NCBI GenBank assembly: GCA_963751345.1
Contig: CAVVUS010000027.1
Location: forward strand, 32,001 to 96,000
Origin: an uncultured Chloroflexia bacterium
GTDB taxonomy: Bacteria > Chloroflexota > Anaerolineae > B4-G1 > SLSP01
Length of the DNA: 64,000 nt
Direction of reading: 5' to 3'
Below, piece by piece: positions 35,233-42,775 of this stretch (its first letter is position 1; every line of letters starts with the position of its first letter). The position numbers and the translations under genes were made by a program. The notes under the pieces are model-generated. The model worked only from the letters and a program-made list of their open reading frames with translations. It had not been told where the DNA came from and did not search any database.

Positions 35233-35793
35233 CTAGGTCTCAGGGACCTCCCGGTAGACCTCAGGCTTCAAAACACCAATGTAAGGTACATTCCTGTATT
35301 GTTCAGCATAGTCCAGTCCGTATCCCATGACAAACTCGTTAGGGACCTCAAAGCCGACGAAGTCCACCGGGACCTCGATCTCACGGCGGGAGGGCTTGTT
35401 GAGCAGGGTTGCGACCCGCAGGCTGGCCGGGTTCCGGGACGCAAAGTTGCGCAGGATGTAGTCCAGGGTATGCCCGGTATCGACGATATCCTCGACGATG
35501 ATGACGTGACGCCCCTCAATGCTGGAGGCCAGATCCAGGAGAATGCGCACCACACCGCTGCTCGTCGTGCCCTGTCCGTAACTCGAGATCTCCATGAAAT
35601 CGACCTCGTGTCGGAAGCTCAGCTGGCGCGTCAGATCCGCCAGGAACATGAAGGCGCCCTTGAGGATGCAAACAAGGATCGGCGGCTCAGCGTCGCTGTA
35701 CAGGGCATTCATCTCGGCGGCGACGGCAGCGATGCGGTTCCGGATTTGCTCTTCCGAGATCAGCACCCGCTCGACGTCATCTAGCATTGACAT
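35233..35793 (-). CDS. hpt: Hypoxanthine phosphoribosyltransferase (copy 2)
   Basis: LKGAFMFLADL, VEDIVDTGHTL, GYGLDY..YRN. Confidence 0.95.
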   Translation of the reverse strand: MSMLDDVERVLISEEQIRNRIAAVAAEMNALYSDAEPPILVCILKGAFMFLADLTRQLSFRHEVDFMEISSYGQGTTSSGVVRILLDLASSIEGRHVIIVEDIVDTGHTLDYILRNFASRNPASLRVATLLNKPSRREIEVPVDFVGFEVPNEFVMGYGLDYAEQYRNVPYIGVLKPEVYREVPET

Positions 35794-35802
35794 CGCCCCA
35801 CC

Positions 35803-36363
35803 TCACTTCTGGTACACACGCGGCTTGAGGGCGGCGATGTAGGGCAGCGTCCGGAATCGGTCGGCAAAATCCAGGCCGTACCCAACGACCCACACGTCGG
35901 GTATGGAGAAGCCGAGGTAATGAAGCGGCACGTCGACCTCGTGACGATCGGGTTTCGTAAGCAGCGCCGCCGTGCGAAGCGATGCGGGCTGTCTCGCCTC
36001 GAAAAGGCGGTAGAGATAGCGCAAGGTGTACCCTGTGTCCAGGATATCCTCTACAATGAGGATGTGGCGCCCGGCGACGTCGGCACGGGTATCCATAATC
36101 AGCCGCACGGCACCACTACTCTCCGCCTTGTCGGAGTAACTGGAGAGTGCGATGAAATCGACGCGATGGGGCACGGTCAGCCGGCGCGCCAGGTCCGCGA
36201 GGAAAATGAAGGACCCCTTGAGAACCCCTATGAGTAGGAAGTCCTCATTGCGGATCCCCTTGTAATCCGCACTGATGTGGTCGGCCATCTCCTGAACACG
36301 ATTCTGGATGGTCGGTTCATCCAACAAGACGTAGTCAACGGAATCAGGAATCGGCACACTCAT
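35803..36363 (-). CDS. hpt: Hypoxanthine phosphoribosyltransferase (copy 1)
   Basis: LKGSFIFLADL, VEDILDTGYTL, VVGYGLD. Confidence 0.95.
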   Translation of the reverse strand: MSVPIPDSVDYVLLDEPTIQNRVQEMADHISADYKGIRNEDFLLIGVLKGSFIFLADLARRLTVPHRVDFIALSSYSDKAESSGAVRLIMDTRADVAGRHILIVEDILDTGYTLRYLYRLFEARQPASLRTAALLTKPDRHEVDVPLHYLGFSIPDVWVVGYGLDFADRFRTLPYIAALKPRVYQK

Positions 36364-36372
36364 TGCAGCTCC

Positions 36373-36960
36373 CTAGCTGGTCGTTCGTCGAGGCACTTCG
36401 TGGTGCGCGCGACAGCGCGCTTCGTACACTTCACTCGCGCCCACGAGGACGATAGGATCCTCGTAGCACGCAGGTTGTCCCTCAATCAGGCGCTGCGTCC
36501 GGCTCGCCGGATGCCCGCAGACGACGCAGATGGCCTGGAGTTTGTCCACTCGCTCTGCAATGGCCAGTAACTGAGGGATCGGACCGAAGGGGACACCGCG
36601 GAAGTCCATATCCAGCCCCGCGCAGATCACGCGTTTCCCATCTTCAGCGAGTTCGTTGCACAACGCGACGATCTCCGGCTCGAAGAACTGGACTTCGTCG
36701 ATCGCGACCACATCCGCAAGCTCATCGAGATTCCGGCGGATGTCGTCGCATCCGTCCACAGGGATTGCATCGGCGTGAAGTCCGTTGTGGGACGCGATCG
36801 CCTTATGGAAGTATCGGGTATCTACGGATGGTTTGAAGACCTGGACCTGCTGGCGTGCGATCTCGGCCCGGCGCAGACGGCGAATCAGCTCCTCCGTCTT
36901 GCCGCTGAACATACTGCCGCAAATGACCTCAATCCACCCCGAATTTGCGTCTGTCAGCAT
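36373..36960 (-). CDS. tdk: Thymidine kinase
   Basis: [26 protein letters not shown], zinc-site cysteines, YEARCR. Confidence 0.95.
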
Positions 36961-36983
36961 GTCACACTCCCGGCGCGTAGAAT

Positions 36984-37012
36984 GAAACAAGGCAGGGGAA
37001 TGTCCCCTGCCT
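36984..37012 (-). terminator. Rho-independent terminator of the rplU-rpmA-rpmE operon
   Basis: AGGCAGGGGA-3 nt loop-TCCCCTGCCT; TGTTTC follows on the minus strand. Confidence 0.65.
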
Positions 37013-37025
37013 CGCTTTTAGGTCT

Positions 37026-37558
37026 CTACGCGGCTTCCGCCGCTTCGGCTTCTTCTGCGCCCCGGCTTCTGAGAGTGTCTCAGCGGCACCGGAGACGGGT
37101 TCATCACCAGGCAGAACAAACCCGCGTGAGCGGAGTCCTCGCTTCGTATCGGCAAGTGCCTTGAGCCCCACACCCTTGATCTCGGTGAGACCTTCGTCAC
37201 CCTTCTCCGCGAGAATATCCAGAATGTCGCCGACCTTCTCAATCCCGGCTTCCGTCAGGAGATTCTCGAGGCGTGTGCCCAACTCCAGCGACTCAATGGA
37301 CAGCTCGGGCGAGGTTCTGGACGCCTTGCGGCGCTCCTCATCCTGAATCGCTTCCTCACGAGCGCGCAGACGCCGCATAAAGCGATCCACCTGGCCCTCA
37401 GTGTCAACGATACGCTGCTCACCGGTGTAGTAGGGGTGGCATTCCGAACAAACGTCCGTTCGAATCTCGGGCACCGTCGCACCGACGGTCCAGGAATTAC
37501 CGCAAGCACAGATGACCTGCGCCTCAGGATACCACTTCGGATGAAGGTCGGGCTTCAT
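37026..37558 (-). CDS. rpmE: 50S ribosomal protein bL31 (zinc type) with C-terminal RNAP alpha-CTD-like extension; probable indel near 37060
   Basis: [33 protein letters not shown], then about 60 aa of HhH domain in the same frame. Acidic tail [10 protein letters not shown] ends at 37026 after a shift. Confidence 0.9.
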
Positions 37559-37815
37559 GCTGCCACCGCCAATTCCGCAATCACGTTAACACGCTTGCGC
37601 CCATGAACAACGTCATACTTGACGATGCCGTCGACCAGCGAGTAGAGGGTAAAGTCCTTGCCCAGTCCAACATTCGTGCCCGCCTTAAGATGTTCGCCAA
37701 CCTGGCGCACCAAGATATTCCCGGCACGAACGCGTTCGCCACCATACTTCTTGACACCACGGCGCTTGGCGTTGCTGTCGCGACCGTTAGTACCTGTTGC
37801 CTTCTTGCGTGCCAT
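37555..37815 (-). CDS. rpmA: 50S ribosomal protein bL27
   Basis: [31 protein letters not shown]. Confidence 0.95.
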
Positions 37816-37817
37816 CG

Positions 37818-38135
37818 CTATGCTCCTTTTGAAATCTCGTCAATACGCAAGCGCATGTAGGTTTGACGATGGCCCATGCGACGTCGGTAGCGCTCTTTTG
37901 GCTTGTACTTGAAGATGCGAATCTTCGGGCCCCGGAATTCCTCCAGGACGGTCGCACGGACCGATGCTCCCTCAACGGTAGGATGCCCCACCGCAACGCC
38001 TTCGTCGTCAGCCACCAGATAGACCTCGCCCAGCTCGACCTGTGCGCCCACCTCGTAAGGGAGACGCTCTACGATGAGTTCGTCCCCAACGGATGCTTTG
38101 TACTGATGTGCCCCGGTCTTGATAACTGCGTACAC
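37818..38135 (-). CDS. rplU: 50S ribosomal protein bL21
   Basis: GTG start (M)[12 protein letters not shown] with GGAGG RBS; [17 protein letters not shown]. Confidence 0.95.
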
Positions 38136-38193
38136 GTCTTTCCTCCCTAATACACAATAGGAGCCGAGCCCTCGCAGGGTCGGCTGCTCAGTG

Positions 38194-38221
38194 ATTATAT
38201 CCGGGGCGAACGATTTGTCAA
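38194..38221 (-). promoter_or_regulatory. Sigma70 promoter of the rplU operon
   Basis: Minus strand TTGACA-16 bp-TATAAT. Confidence 0.8.
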
Positions 38222-38234
38222 CCAAACTTTCCCG

Positions 38235-38721
38235 TCAGGTTGAGTTATGCTGCCCCACATCCGCGATGACACGGTCAATCTGAGACTTGATGCCGTCCCA
38301 GTGCGTTCCCTTCCAGTAGATTCTACCACATTCGGAGCACTGGTGAAACTCGCGCTGAGTCTGGGCCACGTAGGGCGGCACGACCGCCGCGGCGGCCTCC
38401 CACGTCAGCGGCTCAAGAATCCCGTTACATTCCATACACCGGGGCGCCCCCACGGGCGGCGACATGCCCACCTCGAGTCAAGACCTGTGCGAGCTGTTCC
38501 GGCAGCGACTGAGACGCGATCAGGATGGACACTACCCCTCTCCTGCGAGCCAGCTCCCGGTCTCGGGTCAAAAGGATCCGTTCCTCTGCCCGGGCACGGT
38601 ACGCGATCATGGCATCATCGCCCTGGAGATAGCGTGTGTCGAATCCCAAGATGCGCAGCCACCGTGCGAGGCTGCCCAGCATTGCGTCCGCCAGGAACTT
38701 TGGGGCTTCGGATTCGGTCAT
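38235..38721 (-). CDS. Mut7-C RNase (PIN-like) domain protein; frameshift near 38470
   Basis: FLADAMLGSLARWLRILGFD, ILLTRDREL, RCMECN, CSECGRIYWKGTHW. Confidence 0.85.
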
Positions 38722-38888: not shown

Positions 38889-40268
38889 ATGCCGAAACAG
38901 GATACCCGTTGGGTCTGCCAGCAATGCAATTGGAGCTTCGTCCGACATATGGGCAAGTGCCCCAATTGTGGCGCGTGGGACAGCCTGGTCGAGACCGTGA
39001 TCGAGCCCGAGCCCGGCGCAGCGAGCGCGGTCGCTCCACCCTATGGGGTACAAAGCCCCCAACCTCTCAGTCAGGTGGATATCGGGTCGGTGCCACGCAT
39101 ACCGGTCCCGTTGGGCGAATTCTCACGGGTTCTGGGGGGCGGCCTGGTGCCAGGTTCCATTGTACTGATTGGAGGCGAGCCCGGCATCGGTAAGTCGACT
39201 CTGCTGCTCCAGGTTGCTGCGAGCCTGGGAGACGCCCGGCTGCCGGTGCTCTACGTATCCGGGGAGGAATCGCCCCAGCAGATACGGATGCGAGCCGACC
39301 GGCTTGGGATCGAGGGCGACCCGTTACATCTGCTGTCCGAGACGGAGGTCGGCACAATCCTGGCCCACGCTGACGCGATGCATCCCAACCTCCGGGCGCT
39401 CGTGATCGACTCCATCCAGACGATGCACACGGAGGATCTCACCTCCTCTTCAGGAAACGTCAGCCAGGTGCGCGAATCGGCCAGCCGATTCCAGCGCTGG
39501 GCAAAGCTGCGTGGCATCCCGGTCTTCATCGTGGGTCACGTGACAAAGCAGGGCTCCATCGCAGGCCCCAAGGTACTGGAGCACATTGTCGACACCGTGC
39601 TCTATCTCGAGGGAGATCCGTTTCACGCATATCGCCTGCTGCGCAGCGTGAAGAACCGCTTTGGCGCCACCTCAGAGGTGGGCGTCTTTGAGATGCAGGC
39701 TCGCGGTATGATCGAGGTCGAGAACCCATCGGAGGCCTTCCTCGCCGAACGGATGGTCAACGTTCCCGGCTCAGCAGTGGCCATCACCATTGAGGGCACA
39801 CGTCCTCTGCTGGTGGAAGTTCAGGCGCTGGCCAGCCCCACGGCATTCGGAAATCCAAGGCGCACCGCCAATGGCCTGGACTTCAACCGCCTGCTGCTGA
39901 CCATCGCGGTATTGACCCGTCGCGTTGGCCTGAACCTCGGCGAGCAAGACATCTTTGCGAACGTCGTGGGTGGGCTGCAAGTGGAGGAACCCGCGGTGGA
40001 TCTCGCGGTCGTTCTGGCCCTTACCTCCAGTCTGCGGGATCAGCCGATTCCTGCGGACGTGGCCCTGGTCGGGGAGGTTGGGCTTTCCGGCGAGGTCCGT
40101 TCCGTCGGCCAGCTCGAACCGCGGCTTAACGAGGCAGCGCGGTTGGGGTTCAGCAAGGCTATCATTCCCAGGCGACTTGGGCGCACCGAGCTCACTCTGC
40201 CAAGGGGTCTGGAGGCGATCCAGGTGCGTTCAGTCCGAGAGGCAATTGGGGTCGCACTGCCAAAGTGG
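38889..40268 (+). CDS. radA: DNA repair protein RadA/Sms
   Basis: Zinc finger CQQC..CPNC, GEPGIGKSTLLLQ, KNRFG, Lon-like C-terminus. The expected stop reads TGG, in frame with ftsK. Confidence 0.95.
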
Positions 40269-40292
40269 CTCCCGCAGCGAAGCGAGGAGAGC

Positions 40293-42775
40293 ATGACGCG
40301 GCGCCGTTCTTCGTCATCGCAGTCCGGCAAGCGCACGTCCAACCGGAGTCGTACGCGCCGCAAACCTGCTCCTGGGCCGACCCTGTGGCAGCGTCTCAGC
40401 AAGGACCAGAAACTGGATATCCTGGGCTGGGGACTGGTCGTGCTCTCGGCGCTGACGATCCTCAGTATGGTGTCTGCCCAGCAAGGTGTGCTGACGCAGT
40501 GGTGGATCACGCTACTGAAGCGCGTCTTCGGCTGGGGGCGCTTTGCCGTACCAGTCTTTCTCGGCGCGCTCGGGCTCTGGCTGGTGCTGCGCCATTTCGG
40601 GGATCGTATCCCCACGGCACACCCGGGACAGATCCTCGGGGTTGTGCTGGGCTTCTTCGTCCTCTTGACCACACTGCACTTCGCGGTCAGCCTCGTCTGG
40701 CCCGAGGTCGACATACTGAGCCTCGGGCGCGCAGGCGTTGGTGGAGGTCTACTGGGCGCCGTACTCTTGGGCGCCGGCATCAAGTGGCTTGGGCCGGCTG
40801 GGCTCGTCTTCGCACTCTTGATCGGCTGGATTGCCGTCCTCGCCCTCACGGCTGCCGTTTCCCCCGCCGAAGCGGTGCGTACGATTGCCGAGTGGCGCGC
40901 CAGGCGCGAGGCGGAACGATCGGGCGCGCGAAGAGGCACAGGCCGCCAGGACATTTCCGAGAAGCAGATTCCCACGGAACTCCTTGGGTCGGAGGATGGC
41001 GACTTCGCAGACATTGGCCCGGTGATCATCGGTGGTCCCGGCCGGCCCGCCCCCACGCCCGCCGACCGCGCGAGGGACAGCGATGGGAGACGGATGCGGC
41101 GGCGCGCACCCCGCCTACCATCAACGTTGCGTCTCGCCCCAGTAACGGCAACGGCGAAACACATCCGAGTGGCGAGATCGACCTGGCTCCCCTCGCAGTA
41201 GGGACCCAGACCTGGCGGCTGCCCGTGATGTCTGACATCCTGATAGAGGGCAGCGAACAATCATACAGCGAAGATCTGATTCGCAAGCAGGTCCACATCA
41301 TCGAGGACACGTTGGCCAGCCTGGGTGCGCCGGTCCGGGTTAGCGAGATCAACCAAGGACCCGTGGTCACGCAGTTCGGGGCCGAGCCCCTCTTCATTCC
41401 CGGTCGTGGTGGCAAGAGCACGAAGGTCAAGGTCAGCAAGATCGTGAATCTTGCCGATGACCTGGCGCTCGCGCTATCTGCCAGAAGCATCCGTATCGAG
41501 GCGCCGATTCCGGGCAAGGGGTTGGTCGGTATCGAGGTCCCCAATGAGGAGGCAGCAGTCGTCGCGCTGCGCGACGTTATGGATTCGGACAGTTTCGCCG
41601 GTCTGAAGGGGCATCTGCGCCTCGGTCTGGGTCAGGATGTTTCGGGACAGGCAGTAGCTGCCGACCTGCGGGCGATGCCGCACCTCCTGATCGCCGGCGC
41701 GACCGGTGCCGGGAAGTCCGTCTGCGTGAACGCCATCATCACGGCTCTTCTGCTGCAGAATTCACCCGACACCCTGCGCCTCATCCTCGTCGATCCGAAA
41801 CGCGTTGAACTCACGCAGTACAACGGCATCCCACACCTTCTGGCACCGGTCATCGCGGACGTAGATCGCGTTGTGCCGACGCTGCGCTGGGTCATGAAGG
41901 AAATGGACAGCCGTTACCGGCGCTTTGCCAGTGAGGGTGCGCGCAACATCGACGACTACAATCGCCGAGTCAGGAAGAGCGGATCACAGCTCGTTATCCC
42001 GTACATCGCCGTCCTCATCGATGAGCTCGCCGATCTGATGATGCAGGCTCCCGATGAGGCGGAACGCGTGATCTGCCGTCTCGCCCAGATGGCGCGGGCA
42101 ACGGGCATCCACCTCATTATTGCGACCCAACGACCGAGCGTTGACGTGGTCACCGGCTTGATCAAGGCCAATTTTCCCGCACGCATCGCGTTCGCAGTCG
42201 CCTCGTCTGTCGACTCTCGCGTCATCCTGGACGTACCGGGCGCAGAGCGGCTGCTGGGACGCGGCGATATGTTGTTCGTCCCCCCTGACGTCAGCCAGCC
42301 CCTGAGACTTCAGGGCGCATTCGTCTCCGACCAGGAAATAGAGACTCTGATCAGGTTCTGGCGCACGGCCGTCGAGCCCGAGGGAATCAGCTCGGCCCCG
42401 GGGCGAGGTCGCGAGACGCCCACGGGCTCGAGGTCGATGCGGCGGGCCTTCAAGAGATTGCCGCCACCCAGCCGCAGCTCTTCCCGACTTTCGAAGAGCC
42501 CACGTCGTCGGAATTCGAGTTCGACGACGAGCTGGTGCCTGCGTGTGTGGAAGTCTTCCTCGCAGAGAATCGGGCTTCGACATCGCTCTTGCAGCGCCGG
42601 CTGCGCATCGGCTATACGCGTGCGGCGAGGCTGATGGAGCTGCTGGAGGATCTGGGCATCGTGGCCGAAGAGATGAAAGGGCAGTCTCGAAAGGTCAACC
42701 GCGTTGTCGCGGAGGAGCTATTGCGCTCGATCAACACCGGCGAGACAGCCCCCTCCGAGAGTCCCGCCGTTCTGA
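40293..42775 (+). CDS. ftsK: DNA translocase FtsK (TM domain, motor, gamma domain); frameshifts near 41090 and 42450-42530, end approximate
   Basis: GAGGAG RBS + ATG 40293; TM segments; MPHLLIAGATGAGKS, IDELADLMM, ATQRPSVDV; gamma domain ASTSLLQRRLRIGYTRAARL. Confidence 0.9.

Follow-up and report, generated by a model that had tools for sequence, protein, structure and literature searches.

Why does the gene for ribosomal protein bL31 run, in one reading frame, into a domain of the RNA polymerase alpha subunit, and what could such a domain do on a ribosome? The question is raised by rpmE, the bL31 gene in a stretch of 64,000 nucleotides (nt) of contig CAVVUS010000027.1 from an uncultured Chloroflexia bacterium (the window; coordinates given without a locus name are window positions). 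A preliminary description had proposed that the product is a bL31 fused to a domain resembling the alpha subunit C-terminal domain (alpha-CTD) and that this could link transcription to translation. A polymerase domain on a ribosomal protein is unusual, and here it is carried by the only L31 of the cell and conserved in a species-rich, environmentally abundant group.

Domain architecture and reading frame of rpmE

The rpmE open reading frame (ORF) encodes 198 amino acids (aa) as assembled (Table 1). Its N-terminal part, described earlier as a normal zinc-type L31, matched PF01197 (Ribosomal_L31) over residues 1 to 63 (profile positions 1 to 63 of 65; E value, 1.4e-25; 89.6 bits; cutoff, 27) and the NCBIfam L31 equivalogs NF000612 (86.1 bits; cutoff, 70) and TIGR00105 (82.3 bits; cutoff, 38.35); in NCBIfam, rpoA models were also matched in part, at their C-terminal ends. 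The best solved relatives of residues 1 to 64 were ribosomal L31 chains (E values, 2e-20 to 5e-16). The zinc ligands C17, C19, C37, and C40 form the type A motif CxC...CxxC, which is present in 120/120 of the closest homologues, and two of the fused relatives examined (G250, locus L011, and P0210) have lost the zinc cysteines and kept the CTD.

The remainder of the protein supports the second half of the preliminary description. PF03118 (RNA_pol_A_CTD) was matched by residues 77 to 142 over nearly the full profile (positions 4 to 65 of 67; E value, 5.9e-7; 29.6 bits; cutoff, 23.8), and the peptide on which the earlier proposal had been based corresponds to residues 86 to 142. The only non-L31 structures matched were solved alpha-CTDs, with the whole domain covered (E value, 2.3e-4 and weaker). 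The CTD encoded by the rpoA gene of the same genome shares 39% identity with the extension over 66 aa (E value, 7e-11), and all 24 aligned family members matched both PF01197 and PF03118 at an E value of ≤0.01 (best PF03118 E value, 8e-12). To judge from these comparisons, the extension is a true alpha-CTD paralogue.

A PF01197 profile search of the genome (5.40 Mb in 49 contigs; 93.4% complete; 5.6% contamination) gave one match, and rpmE was thus found to be the only bL31 gene of the cell. Among eight fused genomes of a 61-genome class sample, no second L31-region match was listed at an E value of ≤1e-8. PF03118 was matched three times in the genome, by rpoA, by the rpmE fusion, and by a 681-aa NusA protein; the true rpoA lies elsewhere and has retained its own CTD (60.4 bits). 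As no other L31 was found, its product can fairly be called a "ribosome-tethered alpha-CTD."

The start of the gene had been placed correctly, the rpmE ATG overlapping the rpmA stop codon as ATGA. The end had been set at 37026 and needs correction: positions 37026 to 37558 comprise 533 nt, which is no multiple of 3, and the L31 frame remains open until 36962 to 36964. The frame holding the TAG at 37026 to 37028 closes with a 10-residue ending typical of the closest homologues. From about residue 167, the assembled tail turns basic and runs through the hairpin downstream of rpmE, unlike the acidic tails of the homologues (Glu, 31%; Ala, 29%; Asp, 10%). One near-identical DNA contig from run X3 (37029 to 37330; depth, ~4) lacks 17 nt at 37046 and is otherwise identical, which brings this TAG into frame. 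On the basis of this one low-depth contig, the assembled protein probably owes its last ~32 residues to a frameshift, either specific to the strain or introduced in assembly, in a tail that is labile and of low complexity; the L31 domain, the linker, and the CTD are unaffected by it. The public record of the protein is the 198-aa form, and its 90% cluster also holds forms of 183 and 177 aa. The idea that a C-terminal Ala-Ala serves as a degradation tag was given up: although -AA is the ending of 86 of the 120 closest homologues, it was seen in a single one of 13 diverse fused ORFs.

A stop codon after L31 in the reads, which had been named as the case to look for, was not seen at the L31/CTD junction, which three independent contigs span with neither a stop nor an indel. 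These come one each from runs X1 (37099 to 37404; no differences), X2 (37205 to 37488; two differences), and X3 (37029 to 37330). Run X2 is a metatranscriptome library, and the library type alone is no proof of transcription; the runs containing window sequence were soil, salt-marsh, and sediment metagenomes. That the gene is misassembled or misread, or that a functionless domain was appended by neutral accretion, is very improbable. The frameshifted tail and the assembly itself, with its 49 contigs and contamination, would fit such an artifact, but the contigs of three separate runs bridge the junction, continuous fusions are present in 120/120 close homologues and in 13 ORFs from 13 other genomes, and the invariant residues of the domain persist down to ~40% identity.

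Distribution and origin of the fusion

A word-indexed protein search yielded 5,724 proteins of 108 to 347 aa at an E value of ≤1e-3 from 7,176 candidates. The best 120 were 158 to 183 aa long, showed 68% to 93% identity over 76% to 85% of the query, and, where named, were L31 proteins of Anaerolineae. All 120 matched the CTD profile at an E value of ≤1e-10, a test that is partly circular because the profile was made from family members; BLASTP with the RpoA CTD of the same genome found 112 of them (E value, ≤1e-3; median identity, 37.7%). In precomputed annotation, PF03118 is assigned to 59 of these proteins by our count from the table. The architecture is therefore already visible in automatic Pfam annotation, and the proteins are simply called "L31." We found no description of L31, S16, or L21 fused to an alpha-CTD in the full-text literature searched, most subscription journals and supplements being outside its scope.

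The survey of L31 in Anaerolineae that the preliminary description had suggested placed the domain in a defined part of the class. In a sample of 401 Chloroflexota genomes, in which a gene was counted as fused if the match reached residue 151 or beyond, the fusion was present in 38 of 46 genomes of the same class and in 0 of 355 other Chloroflexota (0 of 349 without six unpublished genomes, all unfused). The listed matches of the other classes stop by residue 106, and their best E values are no better than 1e-29. By family, the fused genomes comprise 24/24 of f2, 9/9 of f4, two of f8, and one each of f1, f3, and f12, and 13 of the 38 genes were read as continuous ORFs of 148 to 180 aa. In the family-balanced sample of the class, 8 of 61 genomes carried the fusion, which thus marks a species-rich subclade and not the whole class. 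In both samples, related genomes form clusters.

In a scan of genomes representing species, limited to the best 80 loci and 599 stretches, at least 16 loci were fused; they are titled Chloroflexota, Anaerolineae, Anaerolineales, Anaerolineaceae, Ardenticatenaceae, or "Chloroflexia"; the 16 were counted by long coverage and include three (L083, L088, and L089) not picked up by the ORF pattern. Two candidate fusions outside Chloroflexota among these loci were rejected: the long tblastn spans at L110 (Paceibacterota) and L149 (Omnitrophota) correspond to ordinary ORFs of 74 and 67 aa. The L31 match of genome G434 (residues 1 to 147), with an internal stop, is without the CTD.

A search with the CTD alone against 1.84 billion representatives returned L31 fusions or their truncated gene calls as the closest proteins (185 hits; E value, ≤1e-3). 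Within the genome, the NusA CTD shows 31% identity to the L31 CTD over 78 aa (E value, 8e-9) and 40% to the RpoA CTD over 68 aa (E value, 1e-14), and all three CTDs have in common an insertion of 3 to 4 residues relative to the solved alpha-CTDs. In domain trees based on 67 columns, the L31 CTDs formed one group (16/17 in the first tree, outside the RpoA clade, with support of 99/92; 17/17 in the second, 94/75), and the RpoA CTDs formed a separate one (99/91 and 92/19). The NusA CTDs fell between the two groups in no firm position, and the best neighbor of the L31 CTDs was a NusA CTD (88/74). These trees are consistent with a single capture from the alpha-CTD family of the lineage itself, of the RpoA or NusA type; they do not separate the two donors.

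In the 24 aligned fusions, residues L101, G120, G129, G131, L135, and R143 are invariant, and R96, K139, G146, and P150 are conserved in 90% or more. We propose that the fusion has been kept under selection since its origin.

Other carriers of the domain and its candidate partner

A stray match revealed the same domain on another ribosomal protein, the bS16 of genome G403, where PF00886 (96 bits) is followed by a C-terminal PF03118 (31.1 bits). Four of the 61 class genomes (G403, G424, G404, and G443) carry such a bS16-CTD, and a further bS16, in G290, has a subthreshold PF03118 match (18.3 bits). The other S16 proteins of the class end in acidic Glu/Ala/Val tails of 50 to 100 aa; among the 12 long S16 matches, which reach residue 136 or beyond, 4 have the domain, 7 have acidic low-complexity tails, and 1 (G412) is a 110-aa ORF. 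The best 120 S16 homologues include 29 with both Pfam families (counted from the table). On the domain tree, the S16 CTDs are split by the starred branches into at least two origins, one of them sister to the RpoA CTDs (99/80).

Two of the 61 genomes, G443 and G404, both of which also carry bS16-CTD, have in addition a bL21-CTD (PF00829, 125 and 129 bits; PF03118, 41.0 and 40.2 bits). Their bL21-CTD genes sit in the rplU-rpmA-rpmE operon, where rpmE is short (82 and 79 aa). One bL21-CTD and a 249-aa bS16-CTD are present among the protein-database representatives. None of the 61 genomes combines L31-CTD with bS16-CTD or bL21-CTD. Eight other long L21 matches were fetched and set aside, none having an alpha-CTD: L180 yielded no L21 under the ORF pattern, and one has HHH_5 instead. 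The wider L21 scan includes the unpublished genome G227, whose match extends only to residue 135. In G218, an L31-fusion genome, bL21 (L179, 161 to 808, minus strand) bears a different helix-hairpin-helix domain (HHH_5, 36.5 bits; DUF4332, 24.6 bits).

Copies also occur on the transcription machinery. In RpoC of G434 (L177, 2492 to 5299, plus strand), PF03118 was matched at 30.3 bits inside the Rpb1 domain 3 region; PF03118 was found in frames of 1,270 to 1,560 aa in 7 of the 61 genomes, G434 being the one confirmed as RpoC. The NusA protein of the genome studied here (contig C24, L003, 142 to 2187, plus strand) consists of NusA_N, S1, and KH domains followed, at about residues 455 to 520, by an alpha-CTD-like domain. 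The PF03118 score of this domain, 18.9 bits, is below the cutoff, and its best solved matches are alpha-CTDs and not the AR repeats of NusA, which domain and solved-structure searches did not detect in this protein. Behind the CTD come an acidic stretch and a basic C-terminal motif (K/R-run, [LIV][IV][FY]DE.LG.VV.KR.RKP.RRR..W), which was seen by eye in ~25 of 30 Anaerolineae NusA ORFs (L025 to L054) and corresponds to no Pfam family.

The best explanation as a whole, which we favor at somewhat less than an even chance, is that the domain serves a partner extrinsic to the ribosome, namely, the transcription complex or nucleic acid bound to that complex. We infer the incorporation of the protein into ribosomes, the position of the domain, and any binding from the sequences and from known structures. 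The bL31 part would occupy the usual site. In known ribosomes, 5S rRNA and uL5 hold the N terminus of bL31, a flexible linker reaches the 30S head, and the C-terminal part binds uS13, uS14, uS19, and helix 42 and follows the movements of the head (PMC7530986, accessible part). The alpha-CTD-type domain would leave the 30S head on a flexible tether of ~20 residues and be displayed by the ribosome as an adaptor, whose basic helix-hairpin-helix face could bind a partner from outside. That partner may be the transcription elongation complex, through NusA, RpoA, or RpoC, all of which have paralogous domains, or nucleic acid attached to it, and the outcome would be ribosomes held physically near transcription. 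The domain presumably arose once, from the lineage's own alpha-CTD family, in an ancestor common to some members of the class Anaerolineae and was retained by selection.

A partner outside the ribosome is favored by the capture of the same domain on bS16 and bL21 and by the NusA and RpoC copies. That sister lineages captured the domain anew on these two proteins also makes it likely that its function is a selected one. Together, the fusions amount to a natural experiment with one module and three attachment points (bL31, bS16, and bL21). bS16 is located on the solvent side of the 30S body and bL21 on that of the 50S body; repeated uptake at such different sites makes a fit to one local rRNA site unlikely. 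This bears on a rival that we consider unlikely, in which the domain is a local structural extension, comparable to many lineage-specific extensions of ribosomal proteins. By binding proteins of the head or nearby 16S, 23S, or 5S rRNA, it would strengthen the bridge that bL31 forms from the central protuberance to the 30S head. In its favor, unfused Chloroflexota L31 proteins already have charged tails of 30 to 45 aa at the position of the linker, S16 and L21 of the phylum bear varied extensions (acidic tails and the HHH_5 on the bL21 of G218), the last helix of the domain is basic (+4), and the C-terminal residues of Escherichia coli bL31 matter in subunit association (PMC7530986, accessible part). 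On the other hand, this domain type was captured at least three times, on bL31, bS16, and bL21 in nonoverlapping lineages, and the linker is long and variable.

Several observations weigh against the favored explanation. The DNA-binding determinant of the E. coli alpha-CTD, which we take to be R265, N268, N294, G296, K298, and S299, was located in the L31 CTDs by alignment with the RpoA CTD of the genome and with solved alpha-CTDs. The RpoA CTDs of the class have R, N, N, K, and S at these positions in 16/16 (Gly not tallied). The L31 CTDs retain the first Asn in only 7/24 (2/17) and have Gly in place of the second in 24/24, and they therefore lack the complete determinant; with both RpoA-invariant Asn residues lost, the L31 domain is no simple stand-in for the polymerase domain. 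A nonspecific RNA-binding domain could be useful at any ribosomal site, so three attachment points also allow local rRNA binding, and the mutual exclusivity of the fusions is based on 8, 4, and 2 phylogenetically clustered genomes. PF03118 is promiscuous, occurring also with sigma70 region 4, HTH_3, bactofilin, and DUF4013 and in tandem arrays, and a generic nucleic-acid-binding role fits this equally well. No specific link was seen between the NusA CTD and the L31 fusion: the alpha-CTD-like domain was detected in 19 of 30 NusA loci, at least two of which (L035 and L050) run off the end of their contigs, with 6/8 in fused and 13/22 in unfused genomes. Finally, the C terminus of bL31 lies on the face of the head that looks toward the other subunit, a long way from where mRNA enters and polymerase docks in E. 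coli. In G418, HTH_3 is followed by PF03118 (28.7 bits) in a 165-aa protein (L168, 246 to 740, plus strand).

The residues that are kept suggest a second rival, a tether between ribosome and nucleic acid that binds double-stranded DNA of the nucleoid or mRNA nonspecifically via the Arg/Gly/Lys helix-hairpin-helix face; it overlaps the favored explanation and is, taken for itself, a little less probable than the local structural extension. The equivalent of the DNA-contacting Arg is present in at least 90% of the 24 fusions (15/17 by a regular expression that misregistered one row), the determinant Gly is invariant, the Lys is found in 21/24, and HHH_5 is also matched by 5/24, but both Asn residues kept in the RpoA CTDs are lost. 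The Ser position holds Ser in 7/17 and Ala in 8/17. L31 CTDs carry a median net charge of +4 in the 16 residues past G-x-G, compared with +1 for RpoA CTDs and 0 for NusA CTDs. The L31 domain is thus, as far as these residues indicate, a diverged, more basic alpha-CTD and no replica.

Within the favored reading of an extrinsic partner, two narrower versions appear unlikely when taken singly. One is a protein contact with NusA or polymerase, which, if the module docks there, would be a new way to couple transcription with translation. The other, which we hold to be about equally doubtful, is a second, NusG-independent transcription-translation link in which the modules on bL31, bS16, and bL21 pair with modules or docking sites on NusA, RpoA, and RpoC; if so, the ribosome itself would bear a polymerase-docking domain. 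If the module binds nucleic acid, it would be a tether of a new kind, from the ribosome to the nucleoid or to mRNA. The likelihoods given for the narrower versions and the rivals overlap that of the best explanation and are not additive.

Operon surroundings and comparison with known systems

The rpmE gene is the third of the tight block rplU-rpmA-rpmE; it is translationally coupled to rpmA, behind rplU, and is followed by a hairpin and by tdk on the minus strand (Table 1). The hairpin has a predicted RNA fold of -31.4 kcal/mol (z score, -6.3), with no equally stable structure among 200 shuffles; it was not among the sites of a consensus terminator scan. An Rfam search of 36300 to 38700 found no family at an E value of ≤0.1.

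Table 1. Features of the rpmE locus and of related fusion loci (window positions unless a locus is named)
Feature	Position	Strand	Remarks
rpmE ORF	ATG 37558-37556 to TGA 36964-36962	-	198 aa as assembled; ORF list and translation
bL31 domain, residues 1-64, zinc type	37367..37558	-	PF01197 and NCBIfam equivalogs
Charged linker, residues 65-84	37307..37366	-	Arg/Glu-rich, conserved S-P at end; alignment of 24 fusions
Alpha-CTD-type helix-hairpin-helix domain, residues 85-152 (68 aa)	37103..37306	-	PF03118, RpoA CTD identity, solved alpha-CTDs
C-terminal tail as assembled, residues 153-198 and TGA	36962..37102	-	From about residue 167 unlike the acidic Glu/Ala tail of the family
17-nt stretch	37046..37062		GAAGCC direct repeat on both flanks; missing in one near-identical metagenome contig
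TAG ending the gene in the canonical (family) frame	37026-37028	-	Out of frame in the assembly
Strong hairpin and U-rich run	36985..37017	-	Terminator- or attenuator-like; between canonical TAG and tdk
rpmA (bL27)	37555..37815	-	Stop overlaps rpmE start; named by eye from translation
rplU (bL21), longest ORF	37818..38225	-	Named by eye from translation; true start probably near 38135
Sigma70-like promoter before rplU	38194-38221	-	12/12 matches
tdk (thymidine kinase)	36373..36960	-	Downstream; named by eye; ATG at 36960 comes after the assembled rpmE stop
bS16 fused to alpha-CTD-type domain, plus one weak case (323-aa S16)	L155 645-1163 (-), L157, L158, L160, L178 193-1161 (-)		
bL21 fused to alpha-CTD-type domain	L175 469-1017 (+), L176 480-1022 (+)		Two genomes, one family

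A third rival, which we regard as distinctly unlikely, is an extraribosomal or regulatory role; examples would be autogenous regulation of the rplU-rpmA-rpmE operon and contacts between domains that pair ribosomes or put them into hibernation. The strong hairpin downstream of rpmE would suit such a role, as would the autogenous repression by bL31 in gammaproteobacteria (PMC10931766, accessible part) and the effect of its C terminus on 100S formation (PMC7530986, accessible part). However, E. coli repression is exerted by an N-terminal segment and involves no C-terminal domain, according to the accessible part of PMC10931766, the operon region gave no Rfam family, and the parallel bS16 fusions, which lie in another operon, do not fit operon-specific control.

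Two other observations concern the surroundings. Downstream of tdk lie tandem 186-aa paralogues (35233 to 35793 and 35803 to 36363, minus strand) that resemble hypoxanthine phosphoribosyltransferases by eye. A 770-aa ORF at 38889 to 41201 (plus strand) has, by eye, a RadA/Sms-like start with a zinc ribbon and a P-loop and runs on in the same frame through a basic stretch and a number of hydrophobic segments that resemble the start of a membrane protein; it may represent read-through or a missing stop codon between two genes.

Compared with the zinc-type bL31 of Thermus thermophilus and E. coli (chains 4v87_A4 and 11bq_4), residues 1 to 64 correspond end to end, including CxC...CxxC, and rpmE here, as in known cases, adjoins tdk and ribosomal protein genes. 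The ~100 additional residues of linker, alpha-CTD-type domain, and tail are unlike known bL31; the solved L31 chains listed have 30 to 148 aa, and none aligned to the query past residue 85. The solved alpha-CTDs of Bacillus subtilis (3ihq_B/1z3e_B) and Thermus (1doq_A) match over the whole domain, and the Arg, Gly, and Lys face is kept. In contrast to the alpha-CTD of polymerase, the domain is joined here to L31 and not to the alpha N-terminal domain, and it differs from the solved structures in the absence of the two Asn residues, in the more basic last helix, and in a 4-residue insertion shared with RpoA and NusA of the same genome.

The closest functional parallel is the E. coli NusA-NusG coupled complex, in which alpha-CTDs bind NusA AR2 and NusA-N and NusA KH1 binds S2/S5, so that flexibly tethered alpha-CTD modules act as connectors between polymerase, NusA, and 30S (bioRxiv 10.1101/2020.03.01.972380, accessible part). 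There the module belongs to the polymerase, whereas here it belongs to a ribosomal protein. In addition, E. coli NusA has AR2, in place of which the NusA described above has one alpha-CTD-like domain. The Asn losses in L31 and the presence of a CTD on NusA itself, in unfused genomes also, make it less straightforward to apply the E. coli alpha-CTD/NusA-AR2 picture here. The nearest structural counterparts are the bS16 and bL21 fusions of other Anaerolineae, which share with rpmE the order of ribosomal protein, linker, and C-terminal PF03118 within the same class and differ in their carriers and ribosomal sites, in their separate origins on the domain tree, and in being rarer than L31-CTD.

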